A stretch of DNA of 64,000 nt from a virus. Taxonomy: Duplodnaviria; Heunggongvirae; Uroviricota; Caudoviricetes. The stretch covers positions 33,636 through 97,635 of IMG/VR virus record IMGVR_UViG_3300045988_149282; one strand, given 5' to 3'. Of this stretch, positions 8,318-39,758 are shown piece after piece (position 1 is the first letter of the stretch; the number at the start of each line of letters is the position of its first letter). The notes under the pieces were generated by a model. That model saw only the letters and a list, made by a program, of their open reading frames with translations. It was not told where the DNA came from and ran no database searches. Both the position numbers and the translations under genes were made by a program.

Positions 8318-8395
8318 TTCAATTCGTATGTAAGTGCTTACCTACAATTAGTTTCTAATTTATGATATAAATCTGCCATCCGATTTGACTTATTC

Positions 8396-8731
8396 ATGGA
8401 GGAAGACATGTCAAACGAGATGGCAGGCGTGACGCCAGAGCAGGTGGAGCGCATTGCCGCAATTGTTGCGCGAGAAGTCGTAGGAAAATTAAGTAAGGAG
8501 CTTCGCGATGATATTGGCCAGGAGGTCAACGATCAGCTGCGAACCTACTTTGGCGATATGACTCCGGCGCAACATAGCATTCAGCATTCCAACCTGGACA
8601 AACTTCTTAATCGGCTCGACACGATTTCAAGCGGGTTCTTTGGAGGCATTATTTCCAAGATTACCTCGTTCCTGATCACCGTGCTGCTTTTGGGTTTGGC
8701 CGCTTATGGCGTGAAAAATGGACTGCAATAA
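8396..8731 (+). CDS. putative holin-like small membrane protein
   Basis: 111 aa, single C-terminal hydrophobic helix (ITSFLITVLLLGLAAYGV); GGAGGA RBS; immediately precedes putative lysin and spanins. Confidence 0.35.
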   Translation: MEEDMSNEMAGVTPEQVERIAAIVAREVVGKLSKELRDDIGQEVNDQLRTYFGDMTPAQHSIQHSNLDKLLNRLDTISSGFFGGIISKITSFLITVLLLGLAAYGVKNGLQ

Positions 8732-8744
8732 CAGGAGAACAAGG

Positions 8745-9437
8745 ATGAGTACTCCAAGAGGCATTCGTAACAACAACCCTGGCAACCTGGATAAAGGGTC
8801 GCCGTGGCAAGGGTTAGTAAACAACCCGTCGGAACCGCGGTTCTGTACTTTTAAAGACCCCGTATGGGGGATTCGAGCACTGACAGTAACGCTCATCACC
8901 TACCATGATAAGCGCCGTGCAAAAGATGGCTCCAGCATCGATACGATCCGCGAAGTCATCGAGCGTTGGGCGCCGCCACACGAAAACAACACCGCCGCCT
9001 ATATCAATGAGGTTTCTAAAGCCGTTGGCGTGACGCCGGACATGATCATCGATCTGCATGACTACAATACTATGCGGCCGCTGGTGGAGGCGATTATTCG
9101 TCATGAGAACGGTCGTGGCCCTTTGAAAACACTCAACAGCTGGTATTCGGCCGAAGTTATTGACGAAGGTATGCGTCGCGCCGGCGTCGTTAAACCGGTA
9201 ACTGCAGTGAAAGCCGTACCTGTCACGAAAGAAACTGCAGGCGCAACGGTGACTGCAGGTATCGGTATTGCGCAGCTGGCGGACGTAATGCCGCAGATCT
9301 CCGTTGCGATGGATAAGGCCCAGGGACATATTACCAGCGGGGATACCGTTCGCATTATCTTCGGTATTGCGACCATTGTTGTCGCCGGCTTTATTGCCTG
9401 GTCGCAAGTTCGTAAGCATCAGGCAGGAGTGGTGTAA
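8745..9437 (+). CDS. putative endolysin / cell-wall hydrolase with C-terminal membrane anchor
   Basis: Start chosen at ATG 8745 behind AGGAG RBS (track ORF starts at 8718); conserved GIRNNNPGN motif near N-terminus; C-terminal hydrophobic helix; position between holin-like gene and spanins. Confidence 0.35.
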   Translation: MSTPRGIRNNNPGNLDKGSPWQGLVNNPSEPRFCTFKDPVWGIRALTVTLITYHDKRRAKDGSSIDTIREVIERWAPPHENNTAAYINEVSKAVGVTPDMIIDLHDYNTMRPLVEAIIRHENGRGPLKTLNSWYSAEVIDEGMRRAGVVKPVTAVKAVPVTKETAGATVTAGIGIAQLADVMPQISVAMDKAQGHITSGDTVRIIFGIATIVVAGFIAWSQVRKHQAGVV

Positions 9438-33500: not shown

Positions 33501-34064
33501 CGTCCGTTTGAGATGAACCCCAAACGTTCGGCTGAAATTAACGTACTCATGACGCGGATGGCGGCTGAAATGGGCTTAGGTGATGAACTAATCCGCCCCA
33601 GCATTGGTATTAAGCCGAAAATCATGATCATTCTGGACAATGCGAACGGCAATGATGCTCGAACCGGTTACTTTATGGAGAACGGATACGACGACTTTAA
33701 GGCCAAGCTATTGACGGCTGGAGATTTACGCATGGGCGATCTCTATGTCACAGGTGTTTGCAAGAAGGTTAAAGACAAAGAAAAAGACTACACCAAAGAC
33801 GAGATCGGCCAGTTCACCGACTTTATGCGTGAAGAGATCAATCTGGTGCGTCCGACCTATGTGCTGACGTGTGGCAGCCGGGCAACTTCATTGTTTAACA
33901 ACAAAAACAAGCCATCCGATTTGGTCGGCAGGAAGGAGTATCTTCCAGACCTTGACGTTACTGTCTTTTACGGGTTTAACCCCAACATTCTTTACTTCAG
34001 ACCTGAAGAGGGAGAACGACTAGAAGCGATATTAACCGACGTAGCAGAAACTATTAAGTCGTGA
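30546..34064 (+). CDS. dnaE: DNA polymerase III alpha subunit (DnaE-like)
   Basis: 1172 aa; N-terminal PHP domain, conserved polymerase core motif GPGRGSSAGSLVAWCIGITNVDP and catalytic PDADLDF. Confidence 0.8.
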   Translation: MKALMVRTDFSLGESALKAENAVKIAREAGYTAVISADSMNIASVIPLQRAAGDDMAVICGVKLNIVDDPTYEHRVKLAKESMRCMESLERGRNYSFTALIKNEQGYRDICELMTVANTREQFYFVPRLSLEQLVSTYAKGNIILLTSDIDSVFQRNDFAKITSSLITAGGKDNFYSVVYPHPTPFYDQINVRAMKVASALKIEPVAFYPAYYESIDDADIKDIAHMVTNNIKIDQPHRLRIPHQRDNAINGRRHLLEALKAFSIRMDVPVTAAMASTTQDTIIDACTWRWHELPPALPKMADDEPATLMKLAVAGLRKRLTTKEFGYTPPASENRVYVERLKYEMDTLTRLGFCGYFLMVRDLMNHSRETGIPVGPGRGSSAGSLVAWCIGITNVDPIRHGLLFERFINPERLDLPDADLDFSQARRHEVIEYLNERYGEDYVAGIPNFTYLGAASALRDTARIYGVESADMAVSKELKNVEDDSLPLEELREQLASLDKYATKYPDAFNAACKLQSLMRGFGRHAAGMIVAGVPLTERTPVERRGDARCIAFDKRYCEAMGLIKLDVLGLATLDLLDSAKRYIKENTGEDINLDAISLEDRKVLDGFAAGYTQGVFQLESGPMRKLLKDLGGGIEPMSFKTVVATTALFRPGPIQSGMLDDYVSVAKGFMTPESLHPVLDELTAETNGVILYQEQTMNATRLLAGFTMAEADGVRKAIGKKDMEKMKSMGEKFIVQAQAGWIDVELEDGTTQRIHRAEHFKCEDGTLKTVEEALEYGAKLPINAVRVTASHPGLSEMKAKEIWTAFEKNGAYQFNKSHSVAYSLISYQSMWLKIHYPAEFFAAALTILGEDKHQGLVKDALTYGIRVLPPDVNVSSNRIEIRTLEDGSQVLYAPFSAVKGCSENGCQAIMRAREKVGGKFESLAQFEEAVEKRACNSRVRESLQKVGAFASIEPGSLPATDPERLRDQAELMGNLVIDAVKASRPFEMNPKRSAEINVLMTRMAAEMGLGDELIRPSIGIKPKIMIILDNANGNDARTGYFMENGYDDFKAKLLTAGDLRMGDLYVTGVCKKVKDKEKDYTKDEIGQFTDFMREEINLVRPTYVLTCGSRATSLFNNKNKPSDLVGRKEYLPDLDVTVFYGFNPNILYFRPEEGERLEAILTDVAETIKS

Positions 34065-34621: not shown

Positions 34622-34738
34622 TTTTTGATAGATAATAAGTAAGTACTGATCTATCATTTAACAGCTCGAAAGAGCCACGAATGAACGAAAGCCCAACGCG
34701 CATAGCGCCATCGGCCAAATCACAACAAGGAGAAACAC

Positions 34739-37040: not shown

Positions 37041-38114
37041 ATGGCAAAAGGAAAATCCGCACTGGCACTTGCTCTGAAAAAGAAAATCGGTAGCAACGAC
37101 GAAATTCAGAAAGTAACTCATTGGATTGATACAGGCTTTCCACCGTTAAACAAAGCTATTTCTGGTCGTTACGATGGCGGCTTCCCATGTGGTCGTATCG
37201 TCGAAGTATTCGGTCCTCCAAGTGCAGGGAAAACGTTCCTTGCAACAGCAGCGATGATCTCCGCTCAAAAACAAGATGGTCTGGCGGTATTCCTCGATCA
37301 TGAAAACAGTTTTGACGTTGGCCTGGCTGTAGCCAATGGCCTGAACGCAGATGAGGATGACGGTCAGTGGGTATACAAGCAGCCTGATACCTTCGAAGAC
37401 TCTGTAGAGTTGATCGGCACAATTCTTAAATTGGTACGTGATGAAGAGCTTATTCCTGAATCAGCACCTATCTGTATCGTGGCTGACTCACTTGCGTCTA
37501 TGGTTCCGAACTCCAAAGCCGAGAAGTTCGAAAAGATGGCTGAAGGCACTGCCAAAGACAAAGATCAGCTAAACATGAACGACAATACGGCACTGGCTCG
37601 TGCGACAAGTGCGAACTTCCCTACTCTGGCTTTGTGGGCACGCAAATACAACGCCTGCATCATCTTCTTGAATCAGGTTCGCACAAAAATCGGTGTAATG
37701 TTTGGCGACCCTACTACGTCTCCAGGTGGAGATTCACCGAAGTTCTACGCTTCTGTACGTATCCGTCTTGGTGCATCGGTGATGAAGGATGGTAAAGAGA
37801 AGATCGGCCAGGACGTAGGCGCAGAATGCATCAAAAACAAAGTTGCACCACCGTATGGCAAATGCACCTGGAAATTCTACTTCGATCCTACTCGTGGCCT
37901 CGACGTTATCGAATCGCTCGTCGAGTACATGCTGGAAGAAGGATACCTGCCAAAGAACGCCAGCGGGCGAGTTGAAATTGGTGACAAGAAATACACCAAA
38001 TCGCAGATCGTCGAGATGTATCGGGAGAAGCCACTGGCTGAAATCATTGCGGCTTTGCAGGCAATCGACGACCGAAGAGCAAAAGACAACCCAACCGAGT
38101 CAGTAGAAGAGTAA
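37041..38114 (+). CDS. RecA/UvsX-family recombinase
   Basis: 357 aa; Walker A GPPSAGKT within RecA-like core, Walker B-like IVADSLASM; AAGGAG RBS. Confidence 0.7.
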   Translation: MAKGKSALALALKKKIGSNDEIQKVTHWIDTGFPPLNKAISGRYDGGFPCGRIVEVFGPPSAGKTFLATAAMISAQKQDGLAVFLDHENSFDVGLAVANGLNADEDDGQWVYKQPDTFEDSVELIGTILKLVRDEELIPESAPICIVADSLASMVPNSKAEKFEKMAEGTAKDKDQLNMNDNTALARATSANFPTLALWARKYNACIIFLNQVRTKIGVMFGDPTTSPGGDSPKFYASVRIRLGASVMKDGKEKIGQDVGAECIKNKVAPPYGKCTWKFYFDPTRGLDVIESLVEYMLEEGYLPKNASGRVEIGDKKYTKSQIVEMYREKPLAEIIAALQAIDDRRAKDNPTESVEE

Positions 38115-38119
38115 ACACA

Positions 38120-38146
38120 AGGCGTCCACAGGACGCCTTTTTTATC
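38120..38146 (+). terminator. rho-independent terminator
   Basis: aggcgtcc aca ggacgcct hairpin followed by TTTTTTA. Confidence 0.7.
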
Positions 38147-38206
38147 TCTTGAAAATATATAAGTACTTACTTATTATTTTCGCATAACAACCACATAGGA
38201 AAACAC

Positions 38207-38407
38207 ATGATCAAAATCTATCTATTGGCAGTAGCCACAGGCGTTTCAGTGGCTCTCATCTACGGTTTACTGGTTCCGTCGCTGATTTCTACCAAGAGTG
38301 ATTTAGCCGTCATGTTTGGAGTTATCGTTGGTTTTGGTGCTCCTGTAATCGGTCTTATTGCTGGTCGTAAGTTTATCAACTCATTAATCAAAGCAAAGGG
38401 GAAATAA
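38207..38407 (+). CDS. small two-TM membrane protein (possible partner of SPFH protein)
   Basis: 66 aa, two hydrophobic helices; directly upstream of SPFH lipoprotein gene. Confidence 0.4.
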   Translation: MIKIYLLAVATGVSVALIYGLLVPSLISTKSDLAVMFGVIVGFGAPVIGLIAGRKFINSLIKAKGK

Positions 38408-38410
38408 GTA

Positions 38411-39241
38411 ATGAAGAAAGGTTTACTTGCAGTTGCTCTGGCGGCTATTTGCACAATGGGTCTTACTGGCTGTGATCGCGTGGAGCCTGGATACGTTGGC
38501 ATCAAAGTAAACAAATTAGGTGAAGACAAAGGGATCGGTGAAGTGGTTGGCGTTGGTCGCCAATGGACAGGTCTTAACACCGAACTTTACGTATTCCCGA
38601 CCTTCAAACAAATGAAGACCTACGACGAACCGTTCACATTCCAGATGAGTGACGGTACTGCTATTGGTCACAAAATTGGCGTTGCGTATCTGGTTAATCG
38701 TGACAAGGTAACGACGGTGTTCCAGACCTATCGCAAAGGCGTAGACGATATCACCGAATCAGATCTGCGTCAGAAAATTGCCGACTCTCTAAACCGTTTG
38801 GCCAGCCGTATGACCACTGACTCATTTATCGACGGTGGTAAGGCGCAATTGCTGGACAACGCACTGAAAGACATTCAGAAAGAGATGTCTCCGGTTGGTA
38901 TTGAGGTACTGAGCCTGTCATGGGTTGGAAAGCCTGATTACCCAAAAACCGTCATTGAATCTATCAACGCCAAAGTAACGGCTAACCAGCGTACTCTGCA
39001 ACGTCAGCAGGAAGTTGAACAACGTAAAGCTGAGGCGAATATGCTACGTGAACAGGCTAATGGTGAAGCTGATGCTATCCGTGCTCGTGCTCAAGCAGAA
39101 GCAGACGCCATTCGTCTGCGCGGTGAAGCTCTGCGTCAAAACCCGAACGTTATGGAACTGGAAGCCATCAATAAATGGAATGGCCAGTTACCGCAGTACA
39201 TGACTCAAGGGGCTAACACTCCTTTCATTACAGTGAAATAA
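38411..39241 (+). CDS. SPFH/band-7 (prohibitin/stomatin-like) domain lipoprotein
   Basis: 276 aa; lipobox LTGC; SPFH-like core followed by Ala/Glu/Arg/Gln-rich coiled-coil tail (EANMLREQANGEADAIRARAQAEADAIRLRGEA). Confidence 0.55.
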   Translation: MKKGLLAVALAAICTMGLTGCDRVEPGYVGIKVNKLGEDKGIGEVVGVGRQWTGLNTELYVFPTFKQMKTYDEPFTFQMSDGTAIGHKIGVAYLVNRDKVTTVFQTYRKGVDDITESDLRQKIADSLNRLASRMTTDSFIDGGKAQLLDNALKDIQKEMSPVGIEVLSLSWVGKPDYPKTVIESINAKVTANQRTLQRQQEVEQRKAEANMLREQANGEADAIRARAQAEADAIRLRGEALRQNPNVMELEAINKWNGQLPQYMTQGANTPFITVK

Positions 39242-39258
39242 CTCCCCTAAAAAGTTCA

Positions 39259-39284
39259 GGCGTCCAGTTGGACGCCTTTTTTAT
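39259..39284 (+). terminator. rho-independent terminator
   Basis: aggcgtcc agtt ggacgcct hairpin followed by TTTTTTA. Confidence 0.7.
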
Positions 39285-39332
39285 CGCAATTATCTTATTA
39301 AGAAAACAATTTGTTTAAAAGGATAAGAAAAC

Positions 39333-39758
39333 ATGACAGTTATTAAGAAACTCTACGATGCCGCAAACGTGGCTCTGGATGTTATTGATGATGAAGTAGC
39401 AAAAGGCTTTCCTGAACCTGATTGGGCGCATCAGCTACGAAACGCTATCGCAGAAATGACCCCACCAGATCCAACCCCCGACGAGACAGACTGGCAGCGA
39501 TTCATCCGTATGTACGCTCAGGAAATAGGTCCAACGCCAACGGCAGAGCAGGCAATGCTGCTGAAATACTTCAAAGAGGCGGGAGAGGATTTACCAATTG
39601 ATGACTCAGCATATTGGTTCCACTGCGCATGGCGTAAGTATGACGTGATATACACACAAGGCATGGGAAGCAAAGATATGGTTGTGTGGCATCTACTCCA
39701 TATAGACACAGCCGTTGACAGAGTTATTGAACAGTTTTTCCCTAACCAAGAAGATTGA
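39333..39758 (+). CDS. hypothetical protein
   Basis: 141 aa ORF behind AAACAAtTTGTTT motif and RBS. Confidence 0.4.
   Translation: MTVIKKLYDAANVALDVIDDEVAKGFPEPDWAHQLRNAIAEMTPPDPTPDETDWQRFIRMYAQEIGPTPTAEQAMLLKYFKEAGEDLPIDDSAYWFHCAWRKYDVIYTQGMGSKDMVVWHLLHIDTAVDRVIEQFFPNQED

Follow-up and report, generated by a model that had tools for sequence, protein, structure and literature searches.

A two-gene SPFH lipoprotein cassette in SSU5-like phage-plasmids and its counterparts in unrelated phages

Known SPFH systems and the phage pair

The structures of several SPFH cages have been solved (HflK/C, prohibitins, stomatin, flotillin and erlins), while their functions are debated. Here we describe a pair of genes related to these systems in a phage genome. 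The window, which is the whole stretch of DNA that we have analyzed, has 64,000 nt and corresponds to positions 33,636 to 97,635 of the IMG/VR record IMGVR_UViG_3300045988_149282. It contains two adjacent open reading frames (ORFs) on the + strand. The first one (38207–38407) codes for a 66 amino acid protein with two predicted transmembrane (TM) helices, which we call the partner. The second one (38411–39241) codes for a 276 amino acid SPFH/Band-7 lipoprotein. We read this pair as a gain-or-loss cassette encoding a self-contained two-component SPFH membrane module, most likely with a role in exclusion or protection. In our opinion this reading has an even chance of being correct.

The closest described systems have some of the features of this pair. 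HflK/HflC of Escherichia coli (SPFH3; structures 7vhq, 7wi3 and 9cz2) have, like the phage protein, SPFH1/2 domains followed by a long wall helix and a cap. They are anchored in the inner membrane with their SPFH domains on the periplasmic side, and the same is predicted for the phage protein. However, they are a heterodimeric pair anchored by TM helices, whereas the phage module has a single SPFH gene, a lipid anchor and a dedicated 2-TM partner. The NfeD-SPFH operons (QmcA-YbbJ, structure 8z5g; YqiJ-YqiK; PH1510-PH1511) combine an SPFH protein with a small membrane partner which is co-transcribed and co-evolves with it, as in the phage. QmcA is also found among the Foldseek matches to the phage SPFH protein, at rank 36. 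On the other hand, the partners in these operons carry NfeD OB-fold or ClpP domains, which are absent from the phage partner, and QmcA/YbbK face the cytoplasm (PMC2636767), while the phage protein is predicted to be periplasmic. The prohibitin-like SPFH4 subfamily (Hinderhofer et al. 2009, PMC2636767) can be compared by its description: a single SPFH gene, predicted to be periplasmic, with no NfeD partner, as in the phage. According to this description it has a TM region at the N-terminus and lacks a conserved partner, whereas the phage has a lipobox and a conserved 2-TM partner. Relatives of the phage protein in phages ProddE and CSP3 have been assigned by their depositors to the CDD family SPFH_prohibitin, cd03401 (PMC10269572).

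Part of this is already known. The SPFH gene is annotated in SSU5 and in many other phages, and both families have been catalogued as PHROG 200 and PHROG 1130, which include SSU5_062/SSU5_061, the N4 pair (AlfredRasser bas69_0061/0062) and the copies in pMT1. In the literature we have searched, phage SPFH genes appear only in passing speculation, and nothing is said about the partner or the pairing. The presence of such a gene in phage GIB1 is described as "reason unclear" (PMC13239085), and an HflC-like moron is suggested for CSP3 (PMC10269572). We have found no literature description of the near-obligate pairing, of fusions which keep the lipobox, of the clean boundaries of the cassette or of the promoter element which it shares with other genes. 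We infer that this is an SPFH-partner operon with a non-NfeD partner and a lipid-anchored cage which is predicted to face the periplasm.

Linkage and fusion of the two genes

We have built a hidden Markov model (HMM) of the partner from split and fused examples of the 2-TM protein. It is found as one ORF upstream of the SPFH gene, on the same strand, in 185 of the 191 loci in total. All close relatives (loci L001–L083) have it (83/83), with no stray match among their 16,251 six-frame ORFs. In the diverse IMG/VR loci the partner is detected in 77 of 80 cases, in 72 of them within 250 nt of the SPFH gene; none of the 12,503 ORFs of this set, including those of the window, matches elsewhere or on the opposite strand. 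In total, about 29,000 six-frame ORFs of the three largest locus sets contain no match to the partner profile outside the position upstream of SPFH. There is a single match in the window (E = 6.8e-20). Distant cultured phages have the partner in 9 of 10 cases, two of them weak, and include N4, 4MG, ProddE, CKB-S1, phiM6 and TL. It is also found at 16 of 18 loci from species-representative bacterial genomes, which were collected with a narrower alignment and strict search patterns and are not a census.

The linked pair is present in very different phages: N4, rV5-like, T7-like, lambdoid and P2-like types, as well as in Yersinia pestis pMT1. PHROG 1130 independently unites the partners of N4, 4MG, ProddE, CKB-S1, P88 and phiP27. 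Copies in bacterial chromosomes belong to prophages, as they are surrounded by genes for integrase, repressor, anti-repressor and tail proteins. Pairwise divergence of the partner and of the SPFH protein is correlated (Pearson r = 0.59, Mantel 0/999), with a Spearman coefficient of only 0.14. The preliminary description of this DNA, made from the sequence alone, had compared its architecture with that of NfeD-SPFH operons. The linkage, the correlated divergence and the fusions described below uphold one part of this comparison, an SPFH protein with its own membrane partner; the homology to NfeD does not hold, as discussed in the next section.

An all-against-all clustering of ORFs from 93 loci did not reveal a third conserved gene of the module. 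Besides SPFH and the partner, the clusters contain only antisense shadow ORFs and a scatter of nucleotide-metabolism genes. Across phages, the neighbors of the pair are mostly early or DNA-metabolism genes. In N4, the pair adjoins a PHROG 1510 gene annotated as "superinfection exclusion".

In the window, only the stop codon TAA and the triplet GTA separate both ORFs. Shine-Dalgarno-like motifs are found upstream of the 66 amino acid ORF (AGGA, 38197–38200) and of the 276 amino acid ORF (AGGGGA, 38397–38402). The two genes share the same frame, with TAA between them. Programmed read-through or frameshifting, which would join the ORFs, has been rejected: In the diverse loci only 16 of 77 separate pairs share the frame, less than the one-third that chance alone would give. 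In SSU5-like copies, purifying selection acts on both genes. The ratio of nonsynonymous to synonymous substitution rates (dN/dS) is 0.025 for SPFH and 0.16–0.19 for the small ORF, showing that the latter is a real gene. An antisense ORF of 106 amino acids (38260–38580, − strand) overlaps both genes. We have treated it as a mere shadow of the coding strand, which is conserved, and its counterparts in relatives likewise.

In some cases the two proteins are naturally fused. Among the 150 best cluster representatives from a library of 1.84 billion proteins, 18 are fusions of the 2-TM protein with SPFH. Their order is always the 2-TM module, a third hydrophobic helix and the SPFH domain. The lipobox cysteine is invariant in the 19 fused sequences we have aligned (these 18 and P0021), which suggests that signal peptidase II may remove the 2-TM module as a pro-region. 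The fused forms may thus be polytopic prolipoproteins, in which one chain gives two membrane products after cleavage by this enzyme. Their topology agrees with that predicted for the split proteins: The chain is on the inner side after the second TM helix, and the signal peptide helix then crosses outward. The sole contig of one fused representative, P0164, has 1.1 kb.

A different arrangement is found in a lambdoid/P2-like clade (L046/L077), where the partner ORF overlaps the start of SPFH in another frame, across a run of seven A. P0021, with 347 amino acids and eight member sequences, is a fusion due to the loss of one A in this run. Either a real slip or an error in sequencing could explain it.

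The SPFH lipoprotein and its membrane partner

The 276 amino acid protein matches the Pfam Band_7 family (PF01145) with E = 2.6e-30 and 106.2 bits, far above the cutoff of 23.6. The match extends from residue 23 to residue 209 and covers the full profile. The protein also matches PHROG 200, "lipoprotein" (3e-108). An AlphaFold2 model, built on an alignment of 90 diverse relatives, has a mean predicted local distance difference test (pLDDT) of 92.4 and a predicted template modeling score of 0.73 for the monomer. When this model is compared with the PDB by Foldseek, the top matches are HflC/HflK (7vhq, 1e-14), prohibitin (8rrh/9o9z), erlin (9vvj), stomatin and flotillin. HflK/C, PHB1/2, erlin1/2, stomatin, flotillin and QmcA are all matched with probability 1.00 over about 240–300 columns, practically the full length of the protein. 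An SPFH fold had been proposed in the preliminary description, and it is clearly found here.

The N-terminus of this protein is a lipoprotein signal peptide, MKKGLLAVALAAICTMG-LTGC. It occupies residues 1–20 and may be written as MKK-GLLAVALAAICTMG-LTGC21, with a lipobox (L18-T19-G20-C21) which fits the pattern [LVI][ASTVI][GAS]C; acylation is predicted at Cys21 (codon 38471–38473). The lipoprotein nature suggested previously is thus borne out, together with the presence of a small two-TM protein upstream. The lipobox cysteine is nearly invariant among the 90 relatives. An Asp is found at position +2, and C21-D22 is kept in SSU5-like, P2-like (P88), lambdoid (phiP27-type) and Erwinia copies. 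In Enterobacterales, Asp at +2 is a signal for LolCDE avoidance and retention in the inner membrane (PMC5727369), so inner-membrane retention is predicted. SPFH1/2 occupies residues ~21–176 and is followed by the CC1 helix (179–243, 65 residues) and by CC2 (245–255). At the C-terminus there is a conserved KWNGxLP motif whose W256 and G258 are invariant. The first beta-strand of the model includes residues 21–24, at or within one residue of the lipid anchor, so that the SPFH domain would rest on the membrane itself, at its periplasmic face.

Homologues of this lipoprotein are abundant. We have detected them by tblastn in 413 phage records, from both temperate and strictly lytic phages. The temperate carriers include phiP27, Stx2a phages, P88 and SSU5, and the strictly lytic ones N4, G7C-like phages, 4MG/PVP-SE1, LUZ24-like phages, phiEa104, phiCbK and the T7-like ProddE. 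Lak and crAss-like phages are also among these records. The protein of P88, a P2-like phage, is 77% identical to that of the window.

The similarity to HflK/HflC suggests an alternative to exclusion or protection, the main one we have considered: The phage cage might mimic HflK/C and capture or displace the host protease FtsH. This would alter the turnover of its substrates (CII/CIII-type phage regulators, sigma-32, LpxC, membrane proteins) and favor phage development or affect the choice between lysis and lysogeny. HflK and HflC are indeed the best matches in sequence and fold. HflK is the sole direct sequence match in the PDB, a weak one. The predicted topology, an SPFH protein in the periplasm anchored to the inner membrane, is identical, a conserved host target would suit the high conservation of SPFH across unrelated phages, and similar speculations can be found in work on other phage genomes (PMC10269572). 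Nevertheless, scores with the NCBIfam models are far below the cutoffs, 18.7 bits against 159.4 for HflK (TIGR01933) and 30.2 against 134.4 for HflC (TIGR01932). There is one SPFH gene instead of an HflK/HflC pair, and a lipid anchor replaces the N-terminal TM helix of HflK. These features indicate that the protein is not an HflK or HflC orthologue. Such a mimic also leaves the near-obligate 2-TM partner unexplained, and many carriers of the module are strictly lytic phages, which take no lysogeny decision. We consider this alternative possible but doubtful. Modulation of host membrane proteolysis by the pair, which had been suggested in the preliminary description, is likewise possible.

The partner (38207–38407, + strand) has hydrophobic segments at residues ~4–25 and 34–53, separated by an eight-residue loop. 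Its C-terminal tail is basic, with 5 K/R in 13 residues, so an N-in/C-in hairpin is predicted according to the positive-inside rule. It matches PHROG 1130, "membrane protein" (9e-26). P24 and S28, in the short periplasmic loop, and G38, in the second TM helix, are invariant across the family. The partner of P88, which is found in an early operon, is only 23% identical to that of the window, yet it can be aligned and keeps these three residues.

A true NfeD-SPFH operon would require that the 66 amino acid protein be a reduced NfeD, regulating a membrane protease together with its SPFH partner. NfeD is defined by a C-terminal OB-fold domain, and NfeD partners are found for subfamilies SPFH1/2/5 only, where YbbK faces the cytoplasm (PMC2636767). 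The resemblance is limited to operon logic: co-transcription, which is predicted here, and correlated divergence, as in the NfeD-SPFH pairs (PMC2636767). A Pfam search with the window protein gives no match at E ≤ 0.1. When 16 diverse members of the family are searched at E ≤ 1, only scattered noise appears, and the NfeD family PF01957 is not among the families listed (25 of 30). At E ≤ 10, neither YbbJ of 8z5g nor any other PDB chain is matched by the family profile. In the AlphaFold2 model of a fused relative, the 2-TM region consists of helices (5–38 and 43–68, pLDDT ~83), followed by the signal peptide helix and by SPFH, with no beta-barrel or OB-fold. Two TM helices fill nearly all of the 66 amino acids, which leaves no room for an NfeD domain. 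Thus, the NfeD identity of the small protein has been rejected and membership in the NfeD-SPFH systems is refuted; we regard such an operon as very improbable.

Annotation of these genes is often deficient. In phiP27 (NC_003356.1), a 62 amino acid partner gene (L084, 2816–3004) is found directly upstream of the "lipoprotein" L05; it is not annotated in RefSeq, and its product matches PHROG 1130 with 2.5e-23. SPFH homologues have been labeled by depositors as "serine protease", "transposase" or "transposase fusion protein" (Stx2_95, MD18, phiM6, LUZ24-like phages), which look like propagated misannotations. In another sequence, P0018 (303 amino acids, from a Logan contig of 9.7 kb), SPFH is cut inside the coiled coil after ...EADAIRARA and is joined to the C-terminal part of the DUF7238 protein encoded downstream; this is a deletion variant without the cage cap and the terminator.

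Cassette boundaries, promoter and possible role

The window belongs to an SSU5-like phage-plasmid of E. coli, in agreement with the context supposed previously. Identity in this stretch is 99.6% with Escherichia phage CMS-2020a and 80% with Salmonella phage SSU5. The corresponding genes of SSU5 are SSU5_061 and SSU5_062, and the latter is labeled "putative SPFH domain / band 7 protein" in the SSU5 record. Both genes lie between two copies of a terminator, so that the unit bounded by terminators described previously is confirmed. Copy 1, the left boundary repeat (38119–38146, + strand), is found after the RecA-like gene and consists of AGGCGTCC-ACA-GGACGCCT plus TTTTTTATC. Copy 2, the right boundary repeat (39258–39285, + strand), consists of AGGCGTCC-AGTT-GGACGCCT plus TTTTTTATC. 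The hairpins themselves occupy 38119–38139 and 39258–39277, each followed by a run of T. The 8 bp stem AGGCGTCC...GGACGCCT with TTTTTTATC appears only twice in the 64 kb of the window, at 38120 and 39258, exactly bracketing the cassette.

A striking case is CP056788.1, a closely related phage-plasmid of E. coli. Downstream of its RecA gene there is a single terminator, whose loop is that of the left copy. The sequence GCAATTATCTTATTAAG... comes directly after this single terminator, as it does after the right copy in the window, and the DUF7238 gene begins 80 nt further on. This is an empty site, and the cassette is a clean indel between duplicated terminators. The cassette is also missing from this position in Klebsiella SSU5-like plasmids. 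Since natural empty sites exist, the cassette is dispensable. It is present in Y. pestis pMT1 and in relatives from Salmonella, Citrobacter, Enterobacter and Kluyvera. Y. pestis pMT1/pFra (L181, H85–H88) has the same RecA / 2-TM / SPFH arrangement, with an SPFH protein which is 94% identical and a compensatory T>C/A>G change in the terminator stem. Among complete E. coli genomes, 283 of 5,426 (~5%) contain the cassette, in 195 plasmid and 101 chromosomal places.

The neighboring genes also show some variation. The gene downstream of the cassette (39333–39758) codes for a DUF7238 / PHROG 1451 protein, which adjoins RecA where the cassette is absent. The RecA-like gene upstream (37041–38114) has 1,074 nt in the window and 2,340 nt in Cyrano (L001, 1876–4215) and in CP056788.1 (L175, 501–2840). 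At this position, the annotation of related plasmids shows a LAGLIDADG homing endonuclease or a RecA with an intein. This difference in length is an intein presence/absence polymorphism.

A sigma-70-like promoter, TTGAAA-17-TATTAT, is found upstream of the partner gene (38149–38177, + strand), with 10 of 12 matches to the consensus. Its -35 box is invariant in Cyrano, SSU5, pMT1 and Kluyvera, and its -10 box nearly so, despite diverged flanks. The spacer contains an inverted repeat, TAAGTACTTA (TAAGnnCTTA; 38160–38169), 2 nt upstream of the -10 box. At least seven further sites of this type, with a -10-like hexamer 2 nt downstream, are found in the window at 8331, 20462, 22787, 26398, 34640, 48304 and 60069. 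Seven sites have at most one mismatch, where 1.37 are expected, and an eighth one was found with a position weight matrix scan. Every site is intergenic and lies ahead of + strand genes. The repeat at 8331 precedes the ORFs at 8396–9437, which are a putative holin and endolysin by collinearity with the lysis cassette of Cyrano. The one at 34640 precedes a gene for a protein similar to the single-stranded DNA-binding protein SSB. The repeat at 26398 is found in a divergent region beside an ORF (25978–26364, − strand) which corresponds, by collinearity, to the annotated repressor of Cyrano. TAAGnnCTTA is probably an operator or activator site of the regulatory circuit of the phage. Since the repeat is common to lytic promoters, the cassette is probably switched together with the genes of lytic growth and would not be a moron expressed constitutively for lysogenic conversion. 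Its expression from a repressed prophage is doubtful.

This element bears on two other possible roles. Class II holins are small proteins with two TM helices, an N-in/C-in topology and a basic C-terminal tail. The 66 amino acid protein has this size and architecture, so that it might be a holin-like or antiholin-like hairpin, corralled by the SPFH cage, which tunes or delays permeabilization. Such an effect on lysis timing had been suggested in the preliminary description. It would fit with this that the cassette promoter has its inverted repeat in common with the promoter of the ORF at 8396, a putative holin gene, and one family member has a marginal Pfam match to a holin (E = 0.044). However, this match is at noise level and limited to a single member. 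The annotated holin-endolysin-Rz/Rz1 cassette of the collinear Cyrano is located about 30 kb away from the pair, and across phages the pair is found among DNA-metabolism and early genes, not among lysis genes. Close relatives also do without the cassette. Synteny thus gives no support to a role in lysis timing, which we consider unlikely. Despite the fit in architecture, we have rejected membership of the partner in class II holins, as it is not placed in a lysis cassette in Cyrano or in other phages.

The other possibility is a lysogenic-conversion or virulence lipoprotein: a moron expressed from the plasmid-prophage which aids the bacterial host by increasing its tolerance to envelope stress, or which acts on the animal host by stimulating TLR2, as reported for PM0222 of Pasteurella multocida. 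The cassette has the features of a moron or accessory cassette, with its own promoter and terminator and a clean presence/absence polymorphism among collinear genomes. Its presence on Y. pestis pMT1 and in the E. coli genomes mentioned above also favors this explanation. PM0222 (OAZ06802.1), an HflK/C-like prophage protein which is possibly related to the phage SPFH family, affects virulence (PMC9872710). On the other hand, many strictly lytic phages have homologous pairs, and the promoter element is common to lytic-gene promoters. A conversion lipoprotein is therefore quite unlikely in our opinion.

We favor a role at the envelope for several reasons: the predicted periplasmic face, the presence of the module in both lytic and temperate phages, the early and DNA-metabolism neighbors, its dispensability and the adjacency to PHROG 1510 in N4. 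The candidate roles, the weakest part of our reading, are exclusion, envelope protection or modulation of FtsH. T4 has a superinfection exclusion system, Imm and Sp, with a small polytopic inner-membrane protein and a membrane-anchored periplasmic protein, both made early by this lytic phage. The analogy with the phage pair is functional only, and there is no relationship in sequence or fold.

In our proposal, the cassette would consist of a promoter, two translationally coupled genes and a terminator, and it would probably be switched on with the lytic program, so that the pair would act during lytic growth. The SPFH protein would be exported, lipid-modified at Cys21 and kept in the inner membrane by Asp at +2. 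It would assemble with copies of itself into a cage on the periplasmic side of this membrane, a ring closed by the 65-residue wall helix and the C-terminal cap, as in HflK/C, prohibitin, erlin and stomatin. The 66 amino acid hairpin would be the dedicated integral-membrane component of the cage, either its anchor or an enclosed client. HflK/C, prohibitins and erlins build their transmembrane fence from their own N-terminal helices; in the phage, the partner probably supplies this palisade, which is absent from a lipid-anchored SPFH protein. The loop of the partner may contact SPFH1, as its conserved residues lie in this loop and at the periplasmic end of the first TM helix. The most likely result would be an insulated patch, or a gate, on the periplasmic side of the inner membrane during infection, by which other phages would be excluded or the envelope protected. 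A bolder proposal, a phage-specific and self-sufficient SPFH nanocage unlike the HflKC or NfeD types, installed by many phage families on the periplasmic side of the host inner membrane, with the 2-TM subunit either separate or as a cleavable pro-region, and serving as a gate or insulator against incoming phage DNA or membrane-targeting attack, seems improbable to us at present.

Several points weigh against exclusion or protection by a two-component module. All evidence about the two genes is computational. Neither protein matches any defense-protein model of PADLOC-DB v2 at E ≤ 0.01, and a known anti-phage defense system has been rejected on this basis. A role in an arms race would be atypical for a protein with such a low dN/dS and with 77% identity between SSU5-like and P2-like phages; a host target which is itself conserved, or heavy constraints on assembly, would explain this conservation better. 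The partner is weak or absent in phiCbK, in vB_SR1 and in two loci of one Sutterella assembly. Retention by Asp at +2 is a sequence rule, and other members of the family have S, T, G or F at this position. PM0222, which is possibly related, has been reported in outer-membrane vesicles (PMC9872710). For other families, the number of subunits has been regressed on the length of CC1 (y = 0.1782x + 10.22; PMC12624060); the value of about 22 subunits suggested by a CC1 of 65 amino acids is an extrapolation from them. Finally, the shared promoter element could be either an operator or an activator site.

In any case, the upstream small ORF is often missed, as in phiP27, or annotated as "hypothetical", and the SPFH gene is mislabeled in several phages, so these results are of use for annotation. 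The pair is a compact system, with one SPFH gene and a 66 amino acid partner, and it is found in tractable phages: N4, SSU5, P2-like phages and lambdoid prophages. It is well suited for asking what an SPFH cage contains, how a lipid-anchored SPFH protein is coupled to transmembrane helices and why unrelated phages need such a module.

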